A stretch of DNA of 64,000 nucleotides from Candidatus Melainabacteria bacterium 17Bon1m (GTDB taxonomy: Bacteria > Cyanobacteriota > Vampirovibrionia > Obscuribacterales > Obscuribacteraceae). Location: NCBI GenBank assembly GCA_032128875.1, contig JAVLKG010000010.1, forward strand, positions 32,001-96,000, written 5' to 3'. The translations under genes were made by a program, and so were the position numbers. Shown here piece after piece: positions 3 through 7,355 of the stretch; within the stretch, counting starts at the first letter, position 1; every line of letters starts with the position of its first letter. The notes under the pieces were generated by a model. The model made no database searches. It was not told the DNA's origin and worked only from the letters and a program-made list of their open reading frames with translations.

Positions 3-3000
3 AAACGCGCCGGCACCGTGACCAGCGTCACCGGCAAAGAAATTGTCATCACGCAACCTTCTGGCGAAAAGCGCTACTACCCACTCATTCGTTACGACAG
101 AACCAACCAAAACACTATCCTCGACCAACGCCCAGCAGTTAAGGTCGGACAGCAAATCGAAGCCGGTCAAATCATCGCTGACGGTCCTGGTATCGACCAA
201 GGTGAATTGGCACTAGGACGCAATTTGCTCGTAGCCTTCATGCCGTGGCGCGGTTACAACTTTGAGGATGCGATTGTCGTCAGAGAAGGTCTGGTCAAAG
301 ATCAAAAACTGACTCACATTGAAATTGAAAAACATTCGACCAACGTTTATCAAACTCTGCGCGGTCCTGAAATTCTCACGCCTGAAATGCCGAACGTTGC
401 AGGCAAAGACCTCGAGCACTTGGACGAACGCGGCATCGCCAAAATCGGCAGCTACGTCAATCCTGGTGATGTTTTGGTCTCCAAATTGACCCCGAAAGAA
501 GCTCGCGCTCTTTCTGCAGAAGAAGAACTCTTGCAAGCAGTATTCGGCAAAGTCGCCGAAGAAATGGCAGACAGCAGCCTGCGCGTACCGCACGGCTCCG
601 GCGGTCGCGTCATCGACATCCGCATCTTCACTCCGGAAACAACGCCGGAATTGAAAGCAGGCGTCATCTGCGAAATCGAAGTTCTCATCGCCAGACTCTG
701 CCCGGTTGAAGTGGGCGACAAGCTGGCAGGACGTCACGGAAACAAAGGCATCGTTTCAATCATTGTTCCGGATTGCGACATGCCCTACTTGCCGGACGGC
801 ACCCCTGTAGACCTCTGCTTGAACGCACTCGGCGTACCTTCCCGTATGAACGTCGGTCAGGTATTCGACGCTCAGTTGGGTCTCTACTCGCAGATTTTGA
901 ACCGCTATTACCGCATTCACCAATTCGACGAGTCACTCACCGAAGACGCATCCTTCCGCCTCATCAACGAAGCGCTCAAAGAAGCTCGCAAGATGCCCGG
1001 TTACGAATGGCTGCAAGCCAACGGCAAAGTGCAACTTTTCGACGGCAGAACCGGTGAGCCTTTCGATCGCCCGGTCTTGGTCGGTCGCCAGTACATGTTG
1101 AAGTTGAACCAACTCGTACTGCACAAAGTCAACGCTCGCTCCGGTCTCGGTGGACCGTACGCAGCAGTCACACAACAGCCGGTCGGCGGAAAAGCCAACC
1201 ACGGTGGACAAAGAATGGGCGAAATGGAAGTTTGGGCAATCCAAGCTTACGGCGCCGCCAATATCCTGCACGAGATGATGACCATCAAGGCAGACGATAT
1301 CCAGGGCAGACACCAAGCCTACGCCGATATGGTTCAAGGCAAGGAAATCACTGCCGGCGGACGCACCGCTGCATTCGACGGTCTGTGCTGCGAATTGCGC
1401 GGACTGGGCATGGAAGTCACTTTGGGCAAGATCGTCGACGATTTCGAACCCGTCGCAGACCGTTCTTGCAGCAAAGAACAAGCGCCCAAGACGCTCGAAG
1501 AAGAATATCAAGTCATGTCTGTGGACAAGGTGGAAGCGGCAGATGGCTCCAAGATCCTGGAAATTCCAGCAGGAGACTACGTGCCCCAAACCAAGCCACT
1601 GGCAGCACCAATCATCACGTCGCTCACCAACGGCAAAAACGGTTCCAAGCCGAAAATCGAAATCTCTCAAGAACCACTCATCGACGATATCGACGAGTCG
1701 GATTCGGAAGACGCCGAGGACGCTGGAGCAGCAGCCGACGGCTGGACCATCAGAATGCCAGTCAATCAACAGGCTCCGGCTTTCGATGCGACAAAGAGCT
1801 CCACTGCAATTCCGAGCATGCCCGGTTCGTTCGCCGCTGCGCCGTCAGAAGGTGTCACACCGCCTGCCGACGACAAGGTCAAGTCGATGTTGGATTCCTT
1901 TATAGAGGAACAAACCAAAGACGTCCTGGCCGGTCTCGACCTGGAAAACCTCGACCTGTCCAATCTGGACATGTTCGATTCGCTCGAAGCACAGGAAGCC
2001 CTCCTGGCGGCATTCGATGCCAAAGATCACAATGGCAACGACGAAGCAGAGCGTGGGGGCGCATTGCATGCGCCCAACCTGGGTGGCCATGTGTTGGGTC
2101 AACCAGTTCCACACAATCTGTTCGCCGATCAGCCTGCCCAGCCAATCAAAAATGAGCCTGTGCAACAACCATTGGATGGTTTTGGACCGCTCAGCATGCG
2201 CATCAATCAGCGCAATCCGAAGAATATCGAACAAGAAGCTCCGGCTTCGGAAAGCGAAGCTCGTGGGGGCGCGTTGCACGCGCCCGCGGAAAACGTTGAA
2301 CAAGTTTCAACCGAAGCGCCATCCGCTGTTCCAGTTGCTGAAGCTCCGGTAGCCGCTCCAATCGTTGAAGCTCCAGTAGCCGCTCCCGTCGTTGAAGCAC
2401 CAGTTGTCGAAGCCGCACCAGCGCCAGCTCCTGTAGCCGCAGCGCCAATATTCCTGCCCTTCCCGACTGCACAAGCACCGGCAACGCCAGCACCTGCGCC
2501 AGTTTCGGAACCAGTGGCAGAACAAGTATCCGAGACGGCTGTAGCACCAGTCACGGCTCCGGCACCCTCAATCGTGCCAGTAGTCAGAGCTTCGGCGCCT
2601 GTTCAACAGCCACAAGCTCCAGCAGTTCAACCTGAAGCTCCATTCGCTCCAGCAGCGCCTGTGATTCAAGCTGTAACGTCTGCTCCCGTGATTCAACCAA
2701 TCACGCCGGCACCTGCAGCACAGCCTGTAATCCAGCCGGTGACAGCAGCTCCACAGGCGAAAGCTCTGACAAACGAAAGCTTCGAGCCTTCGTTCGAGCC
2801 AACCACTGAGGACGAACCTGATTTCGGCTCTATCTTAAGTATGTCCATTCTGCAAACCGCCGACGCTACGGTAAGTCAAACACAGCCTGCAAGCCAGTCC
2901 GGATTGTCAGCTCTCGGCAACGAACTGACCCAGACCTCAGCACAGCCGCTAGTTGACTTCCCTTCGTTGACAGAACTGAAGTCGCTTGCCACCGAGCTCA

Positions 3001-3107
3001 TGAGCATGAACCTTGTGGACACTCGGGTGGGAGTAGGTGCCGGTAACGACGAAAAATTCGCAAATTCTTCGTCGAACCATGAGGAAACTACGAAAACAAG
3101 CGACTGA
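3..3107 (+). CDS. rpoB: Divergent RNA polymerase beta subunit (C-terminal part, 5'-truncated by the window) with a ~560-aa acidic, Pro/Ala-rich C-terminal extension
   Basis: RpoB motifs GELALGRN, GYNFEDAI, GDKLAGRHGNKG, GVPSRMNVGQ, DGRTGEPF and GGQRMGEMEVWA. The frame is open to the window edge. Homology ends near nt 1430 (ELRGLGMEVTLGK). No rpoC follows. Confidence 0.9.
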   Translation, partial: KRAGTVTSVTGKEIVITQPSGEKRYYPLIRYDRTNQNTILDQRPAVKVGQQIEAGQIIADGPGIDQGELALGRNLLVAFMPWRGYNFEDAIVVREGLVKDQKLTHIEIEKHSTNVYQTLRGPEILTPEMPNVAGKDLEHLDERGIAKIGSYVNPGDVLVSKLTPKEARALSAEEELLQAVFGKVAEEMADSSLRVPHGSGGRVIDIRIFTPETTPELKAGVICEIEVLIARLCPVEVGDKLAGRHGNKGIVSIIVPDCDMPYLPDGTPVDLCLNALGVPSRMNVGQVFDAQLGLYSQILNRYYRIHQFDESLTEDASFRLINEALKEARKMPGYEWLQANGKVQLFDGRTGEPFDRPVLVGRQYMLKLNQLVLHKVNARSGLGGPYAAVTQQPVGGKANHGGQRMGEMEVWAIQAYGAANILHEMMTIKADDIQGRHQAYADMVQGKEITAGGRTAAFDGLCCELRGLGMEVTLGKIVDDFEPVADRSCSKEQAPKTLEEEYQVMSVDKVEAADGSKILEIPAGDYVPQTKPLAAPIITSLTNGKNGSKPKIEISQEPLIDDIDESDSEDAEDAGAAADGWTIRMPVNQQAPAFDATKSSTAIPSMPGSFAAAPSEGVTPPADDKVKSMLDSFIEEQTKDVLAGLDLENLDLSNLDMFDSLEAQEALLAAFDAKDHNGNDEAERGGALHAPNLGGHVLGQPVPHNLFADQPAQPIKNEPVQQPLDGFGPLSMRINQRNPKNIEQEAPASESEARGGALHAPAENVEQVSTEAPSAVPVAEAPVAAPIVEAPVAAPVVEAPVVEAAPAPAPVAAAPIFLPFPTAQAPATPAPAPVSEPVAEQVSETAVAPVTAPAPSIVPVVRASAPVQQPQAPAVQPEAPFAPAAPVIQAVTSAPVIQPITPAPAAQPVIQPVTAAPQAKALTNESFEPSFEPTTEDEPDFGSILSMSILQTADATVSQTQPASQSGLSALGNELTQTSAQPLVDFPSLTELKSLATELMSMNLVDTRVGVGAGNDEKFANSSSNHEETTKTSD
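2052..2075 (+). repeat. REP-like palindrome read in-frame inside the RpoB tail (RGGALHAP)
   Basis: cgtgggggcgcattgcatgcgccc, same family as the intergenic copies. Confidence 0.85.
2262..2285 (+). repeat. REP-like palindrome read in-frame inside the RpoB tail (RGGALHAP)
   Basis: cgtgggggcgcgttgcacgcgccc, identical to the copies at 5821 and 29881. Confidence 0.85.
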
Positions 3108-3184
3108 AGTGGGTAATCTCCCCATTGGATCCTCGTGAGTATTTCGTCATTATGTACTCACAAACCGATGGAGGAAGTCCCTAG

Positions 3185-4162
3185 ATGGCGACGCAAGAGA
3201 GCACCTTTAGAAATACGGCAAAAGCGATTCTCGTCGCATGCCTCGTTTCTGTCGGTATTTCCTTCGCTGTTCCTCAAAGTTCTTCCGCACAGTTTGCACA
3301 ACCGCTGCCTCCCTATCAGGCACCGCCGGAAGGCGCACCGCCTCCGATCGGCGACGGCAGCACCCCGCTCCAAGTTGAGCCGGGCGATGTGCAAGCACCA
3401 CCTTCGGTTCCATCTGGTGCAGCTGATTCGACTCCGGGACACAACTTCCCGGTAGGCAACGGCAGCAACAGAAGCGTTGTCCGCATCTATCGCCAGCGCG
3501 CTGGCGGTGCAACTGGACAAAATCGTGGCGAAGGCATGGTTCAAACGATCCGCCCTGATCAACTCTCGGCAGATCAAATCAGCCAAATTAATGGCATTCT
3601 CGGAATTAACATGCTGAACGGTCAAGATTCGCAAGATGTTCAAGCATCCAACGATCAAATTGAGCAAGTACAGAACGTTCTGTTCCCGTACCCACAAGCT
3701 CAAGACCAAGGCGGCAAGAAGTTCATCAACAGTGATGCTCCTGCACAAGGCTATCCAAAAGCCGGTCAAGAGAGCAGCTATGAATTCCAAGGTCCGCTTC
3801 CAACAGTAAGAACATTCTGCCGTTACCTGGTGATACTAGGTGTGGTGAGTGCCACCATCTGGATGGCTTTGTCAATGTACGCGATGGTCATGGGACACCC
3901 TTACGGCGGTGCACGTGTAGTCGGCTCGATAGCTGGATTCATGCTGCTCCTCATGGGCTACACCATCTGGAAGATTGTGCAGATGAACACCTTCAATGCG
4001 ATGAGTGACAGACCTGCAATCGTTCAGAACAGACCGAATGATGCGCAATCAAATCAAATGAATGCGCCGGATTTACCGCCCAACAATCCTGGGGCGGGTG
4101 GCGGAAGACCAAACAGGTCAGGCGTGCCGGTTATGCCTCTGTACAACGCGCAAAACCCATAA
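3185..4162 (+). CDS. Exported/membrane protein with a Pro/Gln-rich region and a C-terminal two-helix TrbC/VirB2-pilin-like segment
   Basis: Signal peptide (…PQSSSA). Two hydrophobic helices joined by a short G-H-P-Y-G-G loop. The pilin resemblance is by eye only. Confidence 0.55.
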   Translation: MATQESTFRNTAKAILVACLVSVGISFAVPQSSSAQFAQPLPPYQAPPEGAPPPIGDGSTPLQVEPGDVQAPPSVPSGAADSTPGHNFPVGNGSNRSVVRIYRQRAGGATGQNRGEGMVQTIRPDQLSADQISQINGILGINMLNGQDSQDVQASNDQIEQVQNVLFPYPQAQDQGGKKFINSDAPAQGYPKAGQESSYEFQGPLPTVRTFCRYLVILGVVSATIWMALSMYAMVMGHPYGGARVVGSIAGFMLLLMGYTIWKIVQMNTFNAMSDRPAIVQNRPNDAQSNQMNAPDLPPNNPGAGGGRPNRSGVPVMPLYNAQNP

Positions 4163-4256
4163 GGCTTGAAACAAGCGAATCGGTAAGCGACAGAGCAAGT
4201 TCTTAGACATCTAAAACATCGTCTAGTAGAAACACGTAGTTCGAAGGGACACAGCA

Positions 4257-4961
4257 ATGGCATTGGGTAATACAGCTAATTTGATTCTCGCGGCAGTTGC
4301 GGCCTCGACCCTCACTTTGTCTGTTGCCGCACCGCAAGCTCAAGCCGGTCGTCCTAGTCAATCAGACTACTTCGCGACTGGTGGACATAGTGTTCCACCT
4401 GCAAAACCAGCACCGGCTCAAGACAACAGCAAGTATCCGAAAAACACCGATCCGCTCGCAGGACGCCAAGGCGCCGGAGCACTGTACTCGGACAAGTCTC
4501 CTCAATTAGATTGGTTCGAAATCTTCGATGAGTACGTTTGGACACTGCTACCAAATGAAGAAGACAAATCAGTTCTTTCCCGACCAATCAACAACGAACT
4601 GGAAAGAGTGCAGGACTACATCAAAGTTTGCTCAAAGATTTCCAAGAACTATAGAACTCTAGCAATCAACGTTCGAAAACTTCCAGTACCGCCAAACAGC
4701 CCAGGGCTCAATAAATATCAAACTCTGAAAGCTGACTTCTATGTAGATATGGCGACGGTATACGAAGACTTGATTCGACCAAGAAAAACTAGAACACAAG
4801 AAGAATTACAAGCGCAGCTTCAAGACATCAAAGAAAGAGCAGAGCAACTAAAGGTAAACAGTAACAACCTGCTCACCATGGACATGGACCTTAGACGAAC
4901 CTTCCGAGTACACCAGCCGAAACGCACAGATGCCTTGAGGCGATACGTAGAAAACAAGTAA
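4257..4961 (+). CDS. Hypothetical exported helical protein
   Basis: Signal peptide ending AQA, coiled-coil-like C-terminus, RBS-like AAGGGA upstream. Confidence 0.75.
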   Translation: MALGNTANLILAAVAASTLTLSVAAPQAQAGRPSQSDYFATGGHSVPPAKPAPAQDNSKYPKNTDPLAGRQGAGALYSDKSPQLDWFEIFDEYVWTLLPNEEDKSVLSRPINNELERVQDYIKVCSKISKNYRTLAINVRKLPVPPNSPGLNKYQTLKADFYVDMATVYEDLIRPRKTRTQEELQAQLQDIKERAEQLKVNSNNLLTMDMDLRRTFRVHQPKRTDALRRYVENK

Positions 4962-5037
4962 CGGTAACAACAGCTCCTAATTCGCACCCCCGCGAATCTC
5001 TCTTTCACCCAATCACACCCGCAGAGGACGCACCCAA

Positions 5038-5814
5038 ATGGCTATCCAACTCAACGACAGAGATCTCCTGATCTTCCAATTGATTGATGAGCACAGGGTC
5101 CTGCTTGAAAAACATATTTCCTGGTTTATTTCCGGCGAAGACAAGCCTGTTCTTATCCGCGATCGCCTACGGAAGTTGTTCTATCTGGACTACCTGCTCT
5201 GCCACCGTCACGGCACCAAACTTCCCTGGTGGACAACGCCCACCAAGCCGCTCGTATACATGCTCTCTGGCATCAGCCGCTCAGCAGCCAATGTTGGCGA
5301 AGAAGAGCTTGACCTTTATGACAGCGAAATTCAACGTCACTTCCTCGAAGTAGCCAACCTGAGAATGCTTGGCCTCATCGATCAGAAAGACGAGAAGCTC
5401 TCGAAATTCACCTGGACGACAGTGAAAACTGAAAAGCCCGGCAAGACCGTCGACGCTTTCGTCACCTTCGTTCAAAACGCAAGAACTCACAAGATCGCCA
5501 TCGTCAACCATGCGACCGCAACAACTGAATTGATTCCTTCGATTGACGAAGCCATCAAATCCGGTGCCGAACATGTGTTGCTCGTATCACGCGATGACGC
5601 TCACCAGGCTGCTTTGCAAAAGATTGTTGCACAAAGTGGATCGATCAACATCAAGCGCTGCTTGTTTGCGACCCACCATGAAATCTATCGCGAAGGTTTG
5701 ATCACCACCGCGTGGACTACATGCGACAACGCCAAAGCAACCGTGTTTGCAAAGCCTGTGGAAGCTGCTCCGACAACCAACTGGGCAACCATGCCGGTAG
5801 CAACAGCCGTGTAA
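5038..5814 (+). CDS. Replication-relaxation (Replic_Relax)-like winged-helix protein, nuclease motif apparently degenerate
   Basis: The N-terminus LNDRDLLIFQLIDEHRVL…IRDRLRKL matches the family pattern. The VDA motif is present, but the downstream acidic residues are missing. GAGG RBS. Confidence 0.55.
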   Translation: MAIQLNDRDLLIFQLIDEHRVLLEKHISWFISGEDKPVLIRDRLRKLFYLDYLLCHRHGTKLPWWTTPTKPLVYMLSGISRSAANVGEEELDLYDSEIQRHFLEVANLRMLGLIDQKDEKLSKFTWTTVKTEKPGKTVDAFVTFVQNARTHKIAIVNHATATTELIPSIDEAIKSGAEHVLLVSRDDAHQAALQKIVAQSGSINIKRCLFATHHEIYREGLITTAWTTCDNAKATVFAKPVEAAPTTNWATMPVATAV

Positions 5815-5820
5815 GAGTGG

Positions 5821-5898
5821 CGTGGGGGCGCGTTGCACGCGCCCAACTGTAGGGGCGCATTATGCGCCGAGTTGTAGGGGCGATGCAGTGCGTCGCCC
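5821..5898 (+). repeat. Cluster of three REP-like palindromes
   Basis: cgtgggggcgcgttgcacgcgccc, gtaggggcgcattatgcgcc and gtaggggcgatgcagtgcgtcgccc, directly after the stop codon. Confidence 0.85.
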
Positions 5899-6206
5899 GG
5901 TCCGAAAGACAAAGATTGAAATAACCAACCTATTTCGATTACTGAACCTTCCGGACCACCGAAGCTGACCGCTATGCTAGCAACTTGCGCAACGCGTAGC
6001 ACTCTTGGATTTTGACCCAAGGCGTCACATCGGGGTATGCGAATGAGCATCTGGTATGCGGAGTAATTTAAAAAACTCCCTCCTGAAAGCGTGGCAACTA
6101 CATACCTGTAATCTCCGATGTGTTTACTAGATAGAAAACTGAATACAGATCACAACCTTTTCGTGATAGGTTGGAATAACGACGTCTGCCTCGAAGAGGG
6201 TGCGCC

Positions 6207-7355
6207 ATGATCAATCCGGCGAATTTGGGTAATCTTCCAACGCCTGTTGGCACTTTTGCGACGGTTTTTCTTTCGCTACTCGCAGTTGTCACTTCGCCTT
6301 TTCTTGTGCCGCTGCATGATCATTTGGAATGGCAACACATTTCTCATGTAGAAATTAAAGCTGGTCATCTGTCGCACTTTCAGTTTGGAAAAGAAGAGTT
6401 TGATGCTTGCGAAATTTACTGGCGGAACGAACTAAAGTGGCATTTGATTGATAAAACACATGACCGACTGTATGGAATCGCTAACGTTAGATTGGCAGAT
6501 GTTCTATGCAGAAAGTCCCGCTATTATGGACTACCAATTCCTGCCGAGCTAGAAGCACTCTACATTGAAGGTCTCAAGGTCGAAGAAGCACTGGACGAAG
6601 AACCTGGCCATCTGGCTAATGCAGCCGAGGCACTAGCAAATTTTTATCAGTTGCGAAAGAGATATGTCGATTCCGAGAATATTTTGAAGACTAAGTTGGC
6701 TTCGTTGAAAAACCCATACGCACATCGGGGGATGGAAATTATTACTCAACTCGGTGATCAATATATTGAACAGAAACGCTATCAAGAAGCAGTTACGCTT
6801 TGGACTGAAACATTTTCAAAACGGAAAAAATTTGCCGCCTTTAAGTGGGAAGACCCATTTTATCTCTGCGAACTTGCTCGCGCGTATCACGGAATGGGTG
6901 ATTATTCGCACGTGATCGCAATCTGCGAAAAAGCCCTGCGCTATGGAAATTCAGCAAACACGCAGCTCCGTCCATACCTTGCAAATGCGCTACACAAACT
7001 AGGTAGAGACGAAGAAGCAATCTCACATTACTCTCGAGATCTCAAATTTGAGAGGGAACGGAGAGGATGGACAAGGATCGGAGACAAATTTGTAATGAGC
7101 GCAACTCCTCTCCCAGACACACAAACTGGTGCAGGAAGTGATTTGTTTGCTCTTGGAGAAATTTATTTTGAACAAAGGCAATACGCCAAGGCAGAGCCAT
7201 TATTAGTGGAAGCACTAGACATCGGCAATAGAAAACTCAAAGAAGAACAGCCGGCATTTGTTCGAGAATCAGAGACCGAATGGGTGGCAAAGGTCCAACA
7301 CACCTTGGAAAAGCTCCACAAATGCCAGGGACGAGCTTCCAATACCAAGTTTTGA
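6207..7355 (+). CDS. Membrane-anchored tetratricopeptide repeat protein
   Basis: N-terminal hydrophobic segment and TPR-like helices (LGEIYFEQRQYAKAEPLLVEAL). Confidence 0.75.
   Translation: MINPANLGNLPTPVGTFATVFLSLLAVVTSPFLVPLHDHLEWQHISHVEIKAGHLSHFQFGKEEFDACEIYWRNELKWHLIDKTHDRLYGIANVRLADVLCRKSRYYGLPIPAELEALYIEGLKVEEALDEEPGHLANAAEALANFYQLRKRYVDSENILKTKLASLKNPYAHRGMEIITQLGDQYIEQKRYQEAVTLWTETFSKRKKFAAFKWEDPFYLCELARAYHGMGDYSHVIAICEKALRYGNSANTQLRPYLANALHKLGRDEEAISHYSRDLKFERERRGWTRIGDKFVMSATPLPDTQTGAGSDLFALGEIYFEQRQYAKAEPLLVEALDIGNRKLKEEQPAFVRESETEWVAKVQHTLEKLHKCQGRASNTKF

Follow-up and report, generated by a model that had tools for sequence, protein, structure and literature searches.

Bacteria are held in textbooks to have one core RNA polymerase, which is redirected by sigma factors. 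Here we describe rpoB2, a gene for a second, divergent beta subunit with a long C-terminal tail, found at the start of a stretch of contig JAVLKG010000010.1 of Candidatus Melainabacteria bacterium 17Bon1m (order Obscuribacterales). The stretch, hereafter the window, is 64,000 nucleotides (nt) long and corresponds to C10:32001-96000 of the genome (G000); coordinates are window positions unless a contig or locus is named, and all features described within the window lie on the plus strand. The order as a whole appears to keep this second beta subunit under strong selection, together with its own conserved and mostly disordered tail.

The rpoB2 gene and its distribution

The open reading frame (ORF) is open from nt 3 until a TGA stop at 3105-3107 and contributes 1034 amino acids (aa) inside the window; the start lies upstream, and the whole gene (G000:C10:30260-35107) has 1615 codons, for a protein of 1615 aa. 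The C-terminal half of the core occupies nt 3-1433 and consists of Rpb2 domains 6 and 7 (Pfam PF00562 and PF04560; Rpb2_6 at residues 2-398 and Rpb2_7 at residues 401-474 of the window part). Solved beta subunits can be aligned as far as 'MEVTLGKI' (nt 1410-1433), and the beta subunit of E. coli terminates 3 residues past this point; about 557 residues lie between this usual beta end and the TGA. A first-pass annotation, made by a model from the letters and a list of reading frames, had described a frame running without a stop from 1430 to 3107 with an acidic, Pro/Ala-rich extension of ~560 aa, and was right about the start, the end and the character of this region.

The same annotation had taken the carrier of the tail for the usual RpoB, which it is not. 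The window ORF is an orphan, divergent paralog, RpoB2, and the canonical rpoB lies on contig C9, where an operon contains rpoB (1179 aa), then rpoC1 (601 aa) and then rpoC2 (1228 aa). The canonical copy is 42.5% identical to the RpoB2 core by tblastn, and by BLASTP 451 of 1060 residues are identical (43%). The beta-prime N-terminal family PF04997 has one match only in the genome and no second one; a single rpoC set accompanies the two rpoB genes. No rpoC directly follows rpoB2 in the window, where small genes without a known family stand instead.

The best matches of RpoB2 among solved structures are beta chains (E = 5e-270), with 8syi, 8gzg and 8h3v among the best, which we take to be cyanobacterial polymerases. 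These matches, the split rpoC and an ESM Atlas label suggest a non-photosynthetic relative of cyanobacteria, as the members of the order apparently are. All six beta domains (Pfam Rpb2_1, 2, 3, 45, 6 and 7) are present in six of eight ortholog clusters, and the other two lack the PF04563 entry. When aligned to the canonical copy, the RpoB2 core retains GRHGNKG, GEMEVWA and FLEHDD, and has GGGMMRQ for GSNMQRQ, EGKNCGM for EGPNAGL and KVNARS for KIHARS, the last followed by a two-residue insertion; differences in the rifampicin region are visible in the same alignment. Both rpoB copies are located on one contig in six relatives (G041, G067, G069, G090, G101 and G104), which excludes contamination of the genome bins as the source of the second copy.

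The distribution of rpoB2 was assessed in a set of 41 genomes, consisting of this genome and 40 relatives, in which matches to the C-terminal half of the core were counted as paralog-type from 80% identity upwards. Such matches occur in 20 of the 41 genomes, in addition to a fragment at a contig end in G010, and the paralog-bearing genomes also have, or are expected to have, a canonical copy at ~50% identity. Sixteen genomes of six other families of the class have the canonical type only. Across the order, RpoB2 with its tail is present in 89 of 107 genomes, with matches that span the last core domain and the proximal tail (E ≤ 1e-48). Among the remaining 18, most of which are incomplete genomes, 12 have canonical-type matches only (~1e-18) and six have no match. 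None of 400 other genomes sampled across the phylum has RpoB2 at E ≤ 1e-30. The second family of the order is an uncertain case, with RpoB2 in only one of its three genomes, on a 4.5-kb contig. One relative, G018, has two RpoB2 loci (G018:C21 and G018:C50), ~86% identical to the copy described here; this bin is 8% contaminated and the two loci may represent two strains.

The junction between core and tail is sound. The frame is continuous in 20 loci of 19 relatives and in 40 further orthologs; in all 40 of the latter the tail is closed and no shorter than 150 aa. A DNA run made independently in another study yields a 2852-nt contig over window positions 725-3555, which differs by 20 substitutions and, after 2045, by 21 nt inserted in frame; another run gives a contig over 1238-1666. 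Neither the reads nor the independent assemblies contain a stop or a misjoin at nt 1400-1500, where the first-pass annotation had advised checking. In the ortholog of G021 (L028, G021:C4) the tail becomes Arg-rich ~30 residues in and a second match continues in another frame, which reflects either an assembly frameshift or a real truncation.

Four RNA libraries from four other studies (X17-X20) contain contigs of 169-398 nt on nt 1409-2045, one of the libraries also covering the core and two downstream genes, which suggests that the proximal tail is transcribed in relatives. Two further libraries labelled as RNA-Seq (X2 and X3), probably from the source sample, give contigs of 14-16 kb identical to the window, with flat depth. 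The longest records of the two libraries measure 72-138 kb and match the genome exactly, and the libraries seem to contain DNA or to be mislabelled; given such very long identical contigs and flat depth, they were set aside as evidence of transcription.

Architecture and conservation of the RpoB2 tail

The tail contains 15.8% Ala, 12.0% Pro, 14.5% Asp+Glu and 5.0% Lys+Arg, and has a net charge of -54, as compared with -7 for the core. The acidic tract, hydrophobic-acidic motifs, EAPVAAP and VIQP-type repeats quoted in the first-pass annotation are all present. No Pfam family matches the tail up to E = 5. An AlphaFold2 model of the tail built from 16 sequences has a mean predicted local distance difference test score (pLDDT) of 49, with 376 of 565 residues below 50, and its helices lie at tail residues 155-174, 187-206 and 520-533. 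A second model, of the last core domain and the proximal tail (53 sequences), places two strands at model residues 108-111 and 117-120; the block containing this hairpin scores 68-85 with peaks of 84-85, and the rest of the proximal segment stays near 50. The three helices and the beta-hairpin are the only confident parts (pLDDT 70-85). With pLDDT as a proxy, the tail is predicted to be mostly, not wholly, disordered; the description of the tail as disordered thus fits most of its length and does not extend to these four elements.

The tail opens with a conserved proximal segment of ~105 aa (1410..1724), which has invariant or near-invariant columns in sets of 16, 53 and 40 orthologs, including invariant Cys, Glu, Gly, Tyr and Pro columns, and ends with the acidic 'EPLIDDI(D/E)E'. 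The predicted beta-hairpin EEYQVMSVDKVEAADGSKILEIPAGDYVP lies inside it (~1500..1586), with invariant E, G and P columns. The acidic tract EPLIDDIDESDSEDAEDAG lies at 1671..1727, its 'LIDDI' part being kept in nearly all orthologs.

Helix A, KVKSMLDSFIEEQTKDVLAG (1875..1934; tail residues 155-174, block pLDDT 64-77), carries the order-wide motif 'FI(D/E)xxT', whose F and I are near-invariant in 40 independent orthologs. The string LAGLDLENLDLSNLDMFD is present at 1926-1979. Helix B, DMFDSLEAQEALLAAFDAKD (1968..2027; tail residues 187-206), is apparently a second copy of the DFxSL-type motif. MAFFT pairs Helix B with the DFPSL helix of short-tailed genera; it is kept within this genus and has a weaker counterpart in G015.

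A dispersed hairpin DNA repeat is read in frame twice, as ERGGALHAP at 2049..2075, where a 24-mer has 23 exact copies in the genome, and as ARGGALHAP at 2259..2285. Its stem is GGGCGC(A/G) / (T/C)GCGCCC, in which the variable positions change together. With up to 3 mismatches allowed, the 20-nt core of the repeat occurs 186 times in the genome, frequently in tandem clusters; 169 of these are outside open frames of at least 300 codons and 17 are inside, including the two in the RpoB2 tail. A further site lies at 5820-5847. The insertions differ among close relatives: G011, which is 98% identical elsewhere, lacks those in the RpoB2 tail, and G007 and G003 have extra copies, so the middle of the tail tolerates insertions.

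A Pro/Ala/Val-rich low-complexity spacer follows (2277..2744), in which P+A+V make up 57-87% of each 30-aa window. It corresponds to tail residues ~290-445, most of them with pLDDT below 50 (block means 40-51). The spacer includes the sole tandem DNA repeat detected by Tandem Repeats Finder (27 nt, 2.8 copies, 2330-2404), EAPVAAP twice (2340-2387) and VIQ(A/P)(V/I)T three times (2661-2744), and is absent from short-tailed genera.

Beyond the spacer, sequence comparison identifies a third DFxS-type motif, DEPDFGSILSMSIL (2811..2852), common to the sister genome G015. Helix C, LVDFPSLTELKSLATELMSM (2949..3008; tail residues 520-533, block pLDDT 76), carries the order-wide motif DFPS(L/F)xELxxLAxEL, in which F, P, S, E, L and L do not vary among 15 orthologs; the string DFPSLTELKSLA is present at 2955-2990. 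The C-terminal end SSSNHEETTKTSD with the TGA stop (3066..3107) is identical in six orthologs of the genus.

For comparison across the order, 57 tails were usable, namely that of this genome, 16 of the 20 loci of relatives and the 40 further orthologs. Those of G021 (frameshifted), G008 (run of N), G012 and G004 (both cut at a contig end) were dropped, and G018b, also cut at a contig end, was used in the motif census only, leaving 56 complete tails. Tail length varies from 127 to 592 aa; the seven longest tails (437-592 aa) are those of this genus and G015, and the rest have 127-341 aa. Each of the 56 complete tails has a negative net charge (-10 to -61, median -31), with D+E at ~20%, and a Pro+Ala content above 22% is confined to the long-tailed group. 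Acidity, the proximal segment with its hairpin, Helix A and Helix C are conserved across genera, and a tail is present in each ortholog compared. Whether such a tail persists among orthologs, with short motifs preserved, was the check that the first-pass annotation had proposed, and it does. The stretches between the conserved elements vary from 0 to ~350 aa and accept repeat insertions. What has expanded in this genus and in G015, under relaxed constraint, is the Pro/Ala/Val-rich bulk, which is not the conserved part.

A census by regular expression was sensitive to pattern and offset, and Helix C was therefore counted with a hidden Markov model (HMM), the threshold being the best of 570 shuffled tails (5.6 bits). 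The HMM exceeds this shuffled maximum in 48 of the 57 tails, and in 33 of the 40 outside its training set. Helix C always lies 21-67 residues from the C-terminal end, whatever the length of the tail. Downstream of Helix C, a 'GYFK(K/R)' motif is present in G058, G062, G067, G105 and G114 (L075, L036, L074, L050 and L038) and not in this genome.

Ratios of nonsynonymous to synonymous substitution (dN/dS) were calculated between species of the genus by the Nei-Gojobori method, the alignment of low-complexity parts being uncertain. They are 0.005-0.08 for the core, 0.09-0.23 for the proximal segment, 0.0-0.23 for the Helix A/B block (lowest at Helix A, ~0.03 in most pairs), 0.18-0.38 for the middle, 0.16-0.30 for the Pro/Ala/Val block and 0.10-0.24 for the C-terminal module. 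With every value below 0.4, these estimates indicate purifying selection on every tail segment.

The tail is found on RpoB2 proteins. A tail query returned eight clusters among 5.8 billion, all with RpoB domains (proteins of 568-1810 aa; 7993 candidates scored). A profile of the C-terminal module matched 22 proteins among 1.84 billion representatives; the 21 examined are RpoB2 tail fragments, and the 22nd is a 1289-aa protein matching at its C-terminal end. Neither the cluster search nor the profile search, with 21 of its 22 matches examined, yielded a stand-alone or otherwise fused tail protein. In the six-frame translation of the genome, the Helix C motif has no other significant match (next best 11.4 bits, E = 0.37).

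The first-pass annotation had held that a bacterial RpoB usually ends soon after the ELxxLG motif. This rule fails here for both paralogs. The canonical RpoB of this genome has 116 residues past the core, acidic and ending in ...DDDF (L035:9803-10171, minus strand, contig C9), and acidic tails of 96-256 aa with a common conserved proximal piece are found on the canonical RpoB of all 20 relatives compared. Net charges range from -18 to -54 in the 19 relatives for which they were computed, G011 being the 20th. The housekeeping tails lack Helices A and C, and profile-profile comparison detects no similarity between them and the RpoB2 tails (hhalign probability 0.1%), for which reason homology of the two kinds of tail was rejected. 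An acidic tail on beta therefore characterises the order, each paralog having its own kind. With phmmer, the alignment to one solved beta chain extended into the last 35 residues of that chain, too weakly for a call.

The gene cluster around rpoB2

Gene order was compared at the 20 orthologous loci from 19 relatives, where misses fall largely at contig ends. The cluster consists of a divergent LuxR-type response regulator, a TPR gene, rpoB2 and three small genes. In 19 of 20 loci, the TPR gene (743 aa; L034:14028-16259, plus strand) immediately precedes rpoB2 and is read in the same direction. In this genome its stop codon runs straight into the rpoB2 start codon (TAAATG, with rpoB2 starting at L034:16260). 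Judged by coordinates, the two genes also abut or overlap in all 15 other loci with a TPR ORF complete at its 3' end. The TPR protein, probably exported, begins with a Sec-type signal peptide and has a Gln-rich middle. It was considered as a partner of the tail, as a peptide-binding TPR protein with translational coupling to RpoB2, and set aside for its Sec-type signal peptide.

The response regulator (L034:12819-13628, minus strand, upstream of the window) is divergently transcribed in 17 of 20 loci and is 84-100% identical across genera. It reads 'CERHE' near the N-terminus, where receivers have an acidic Asp pair, and has an extra C-terminal coiled-coil-like stretch; it may act independently of phosphorylation.

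Three genes follow rpoB2 (3185..5814: 3185-4162, 4257-4961 and 5038-5814), each of them in 16 of 20 loci and co-conserved with rpoB2; no Pfam family was found for the three proteins. The 325-aa protein has a signal peptide and two membrane spans, the 234-aa protein has a signal peptide, and the 258-aa protein, encoded at 5038-5814, is predicted to be cytoplasmic, without a hydrophobic N-terminus. Across genera, the first ~76 residues of the 258-aa protein hardly vary. A weak lead from the ESM Atlas (score 0.93, rank 7) is to Replic_Relax, a winged-helix family. A scan of 2900-6300 for terminators and promoters gave nothing above the shuffled expectation.

Possible roles of the tail

We put the chances at about even that the tail is a flexible tether whose short conserved helices dock a partner onto an alternative RpoB2 polymerase. 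A tether with docking motifs is the best fit because the short helices sit at fixed ends, the spacer between them is variable and the tail is exclusive to RpoB2. RpoB2 would replace beta in a core with the single set of alpha, gamma/beta-prime and omega subunits. The beta C-terminus adjoins the beta-prime N-terminus near the RNA exit side, and natural beta/beta-prime fusions exist; on this basis, the tail would project from that same place. The helices would be binding sites for partners and the variable stretches would be spacers.

Several points weigh against a docking tether. The most tightly linked neighbour, the TPR protein, is probably exported by way of its Sec-type signal peptide, and of the three downstream proteins two look exported or membrane-bound; the cluster therefore offers few obvious cytoplasmic partners, these being the response regulator and the 258-aa protein. 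Nine of the 57 tails fall below the shuffled maximum for Helix C, although several of them have degenerate variants by eye. Helix C occurs on no other protein of the genome, and there is no sign of a docking hub serving several clients. Transcription is suggested by contigs from RNA libraries, and such libraries can contain DNA.

A more elaborate form of the same idea is that the order has two polymerases differing in beta, that the RpoB2 tail is a platform by the RNA exit resembling those of the Pol II C-terminal domain (CTD) and Pol V, whose DFPSL helices recruit a factor for a special regulon, and that the acidic housekeeping tail serves a different partner. We offer it tentatively, as possible and not as probable.

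The main rival, which we consider unlikely and still a serious contender, is that the tail acts in cis through its charge, as a nucleic-acid mimic, as an electrostatic shield against non-specific DNA or RNA or as an aid to release, with the helices secondary; sigma region 1.1 and the disordered, acidic C-terminal part of the delta subunit of Gram-positive bacteria would be parallels. The only property that all 56 complete RpoB2 tails share is net negative charge, and the unrelated housekeeping tails are acidic in 21 of 21 genomes, which suggests that this lineage as a whole needs beta to have an acidic appendage. PMC7749165 describes the delta C-terminal region as disordered and acidic, with a charge of -47 over 83 residues. 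The charge density of the RpoB2 tails is well below that of delta (14.5% D+E here and ~20% in short tails), and a role for charge leaves unexplained both the conserved hairpin and the invariant F, P, S, E and L residues at a fixed distance from the C-terminal end.

It is improbable, in our view, that function is confined to the first ~105 residues, which might for instance touch the core or beta-prime at an additional site, and that the rest is tolerated growth by slippage and repeat insertion. The spread of tail lengths (127-592 aa), the 27-nt tandem repeat, the dispersed hairpin inserted in frame, the indels among strains and the G021 reading frameshifted ~30 residues into the tail all agree with such growth, as do dN/dS values that are highest in the middle and Pro/Ala/Val parts, and for the Pro/Ala/Val block itself the explanation fits. 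Helices A and C, however, lie beyond the proximal segment and yet are conserved across genera, the C-terminal module has a dN/dS of 0.10-0.24 and even the Pro/Ala/Val part does not exceed 0.30, and a closed tail of at least 150 aa is kept in 40 of 40 further orthologs.

Clustering or phase separation of the RpoB2 polymerase into foci, driven by the tail, which was the condensate idea of the first-pass annotation, is a poor candidate. The long low-complexity tail of this genus, with its multivalent-looking DFxS-type repeats, would suit such a role, but in most genera the tail is short, carries single motifs and is little enriched in Pro/Ala, and a strong negative charge without a matching basic region disfavours self-association. 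Even less credible is a membrane tether, in which amphipathic helices would keep the RpoB2 polymerase at the membrane, or attached to membrane proteins encoded in the cluster, and would so couple the transcription of envelope genes to export. The position of rpoB2 among genes for exported and membrane proteins, with translational coupling to one of them, is what speaks for it; the polar faces of the helices are acidic, unlike those of known membrane-targeting helices, and the predicted membrane protein, judged by its topology, would expose almost nothing to the cytoplasm. An artefact, in which a missed stop, a frameshift or a chimeric join fused non-coding or foreign sequence to rpoB, is refuted by 60 continuous orthologous frames, an independent contig across the whole tail and dN/dS below 1 throughout.

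Duplicated rpoB genes are known from actinomycetes. A preprint (bioRxiv 10.1101/2024.11.05.622190) reports 90 species with two rpoB copies, chiefly of Nocardia, Nonomuraea and Actinomadura, and PMC5431353 describes the rpoB(R)/rpoB(S) duplication of Nonomuraea gerenzanensis. RpoB2 is like these copies (Nonomuraea, and rpoB2 of Nocardia) in that a second beta stands beside one beta-prime, and two forms of polymerase would result from a swap of beta. In actinomycetes the two copies are closely related and diverge chiefly in the rifampicin region, whereas RpoB2 is 43% identical to the housekeeping copy, ancient, order-wide and located in a fixed cluster. It also has a conserved tail of 127-592 aa, and we know of no tail on the actinomycete copies.

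The likeness to the Pol II CTD drawn in the first-pass annotation stands for position and concept and not for sequence or subunit. The Pol II CTD and the NRPE1 extension of plant Pol V are, like the RpoB2 tail, disordered C-terminal extensions of a catalytic subunit, presumably near the RNA exit and possibly with partner-recruiting motifs, and Pol IV and Pol V are likewise specialised polymerases defined by paralogous large subunits. Unlike the CTD and NRPE1, the RpoB2 tail is on the homolog of Rpb2 (beta) and not of Rpb1 (beta-prime), is acidic, has no heptad or GW repeats and shows no evidence of phosphorylation. If the tails do recruit isoform-specific partners, this would be specialisation by subunit swap with a CTD-like platform in bacteria, and short tail peptides used as bait would give a tractable entry to the role of the second polymerase.

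The scaffold tail of RNase E and the linker and acidic tip of SSB have the same general plan of a folded core, a variable disordered region and short conserved microdomains, and the RpoB2 tail agrees with what is expected of a disordered scaffold, having short conserved segments within a length-variable region predicted to be disordered. The microdomains of RNase E and SSB bind partners; docking by the RpoB2 tail is putative. No sequence relation to either was found, the RpoB2 tail has no basic RNA-binding segment, and its Helix C lies 21-67 residues from the end and not, like the SSB tip, at the extreme C-terminus. The delta subunit (RpoE) of Firmicutes, as characterised in PMC7749165, is also an acidic, disordered appendage of the polymerase itself, but it is a separate subunit of 173 residues (-47 over 83 residues), whereas the RpoB2 tail is fused to beta, less charge-dense and equipped with hydrophobic-acidic helices.

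A literature search that covered sources outside subscription journals and supplements, and included passages of PMC8047818, turned up no description of either the additional rpoB or the tails of beta in this lineage. Within the order there is a likeness to the housekeeping RpoB tails, which also form an acidic, variable extension with a conserved proximal piece after the same core end. Long disordered beta tails are thus a trait of the lineage and not a one-off, which matters for annotating and modelling the RNA polymerases of uncultured relatives of cyanobacteria.

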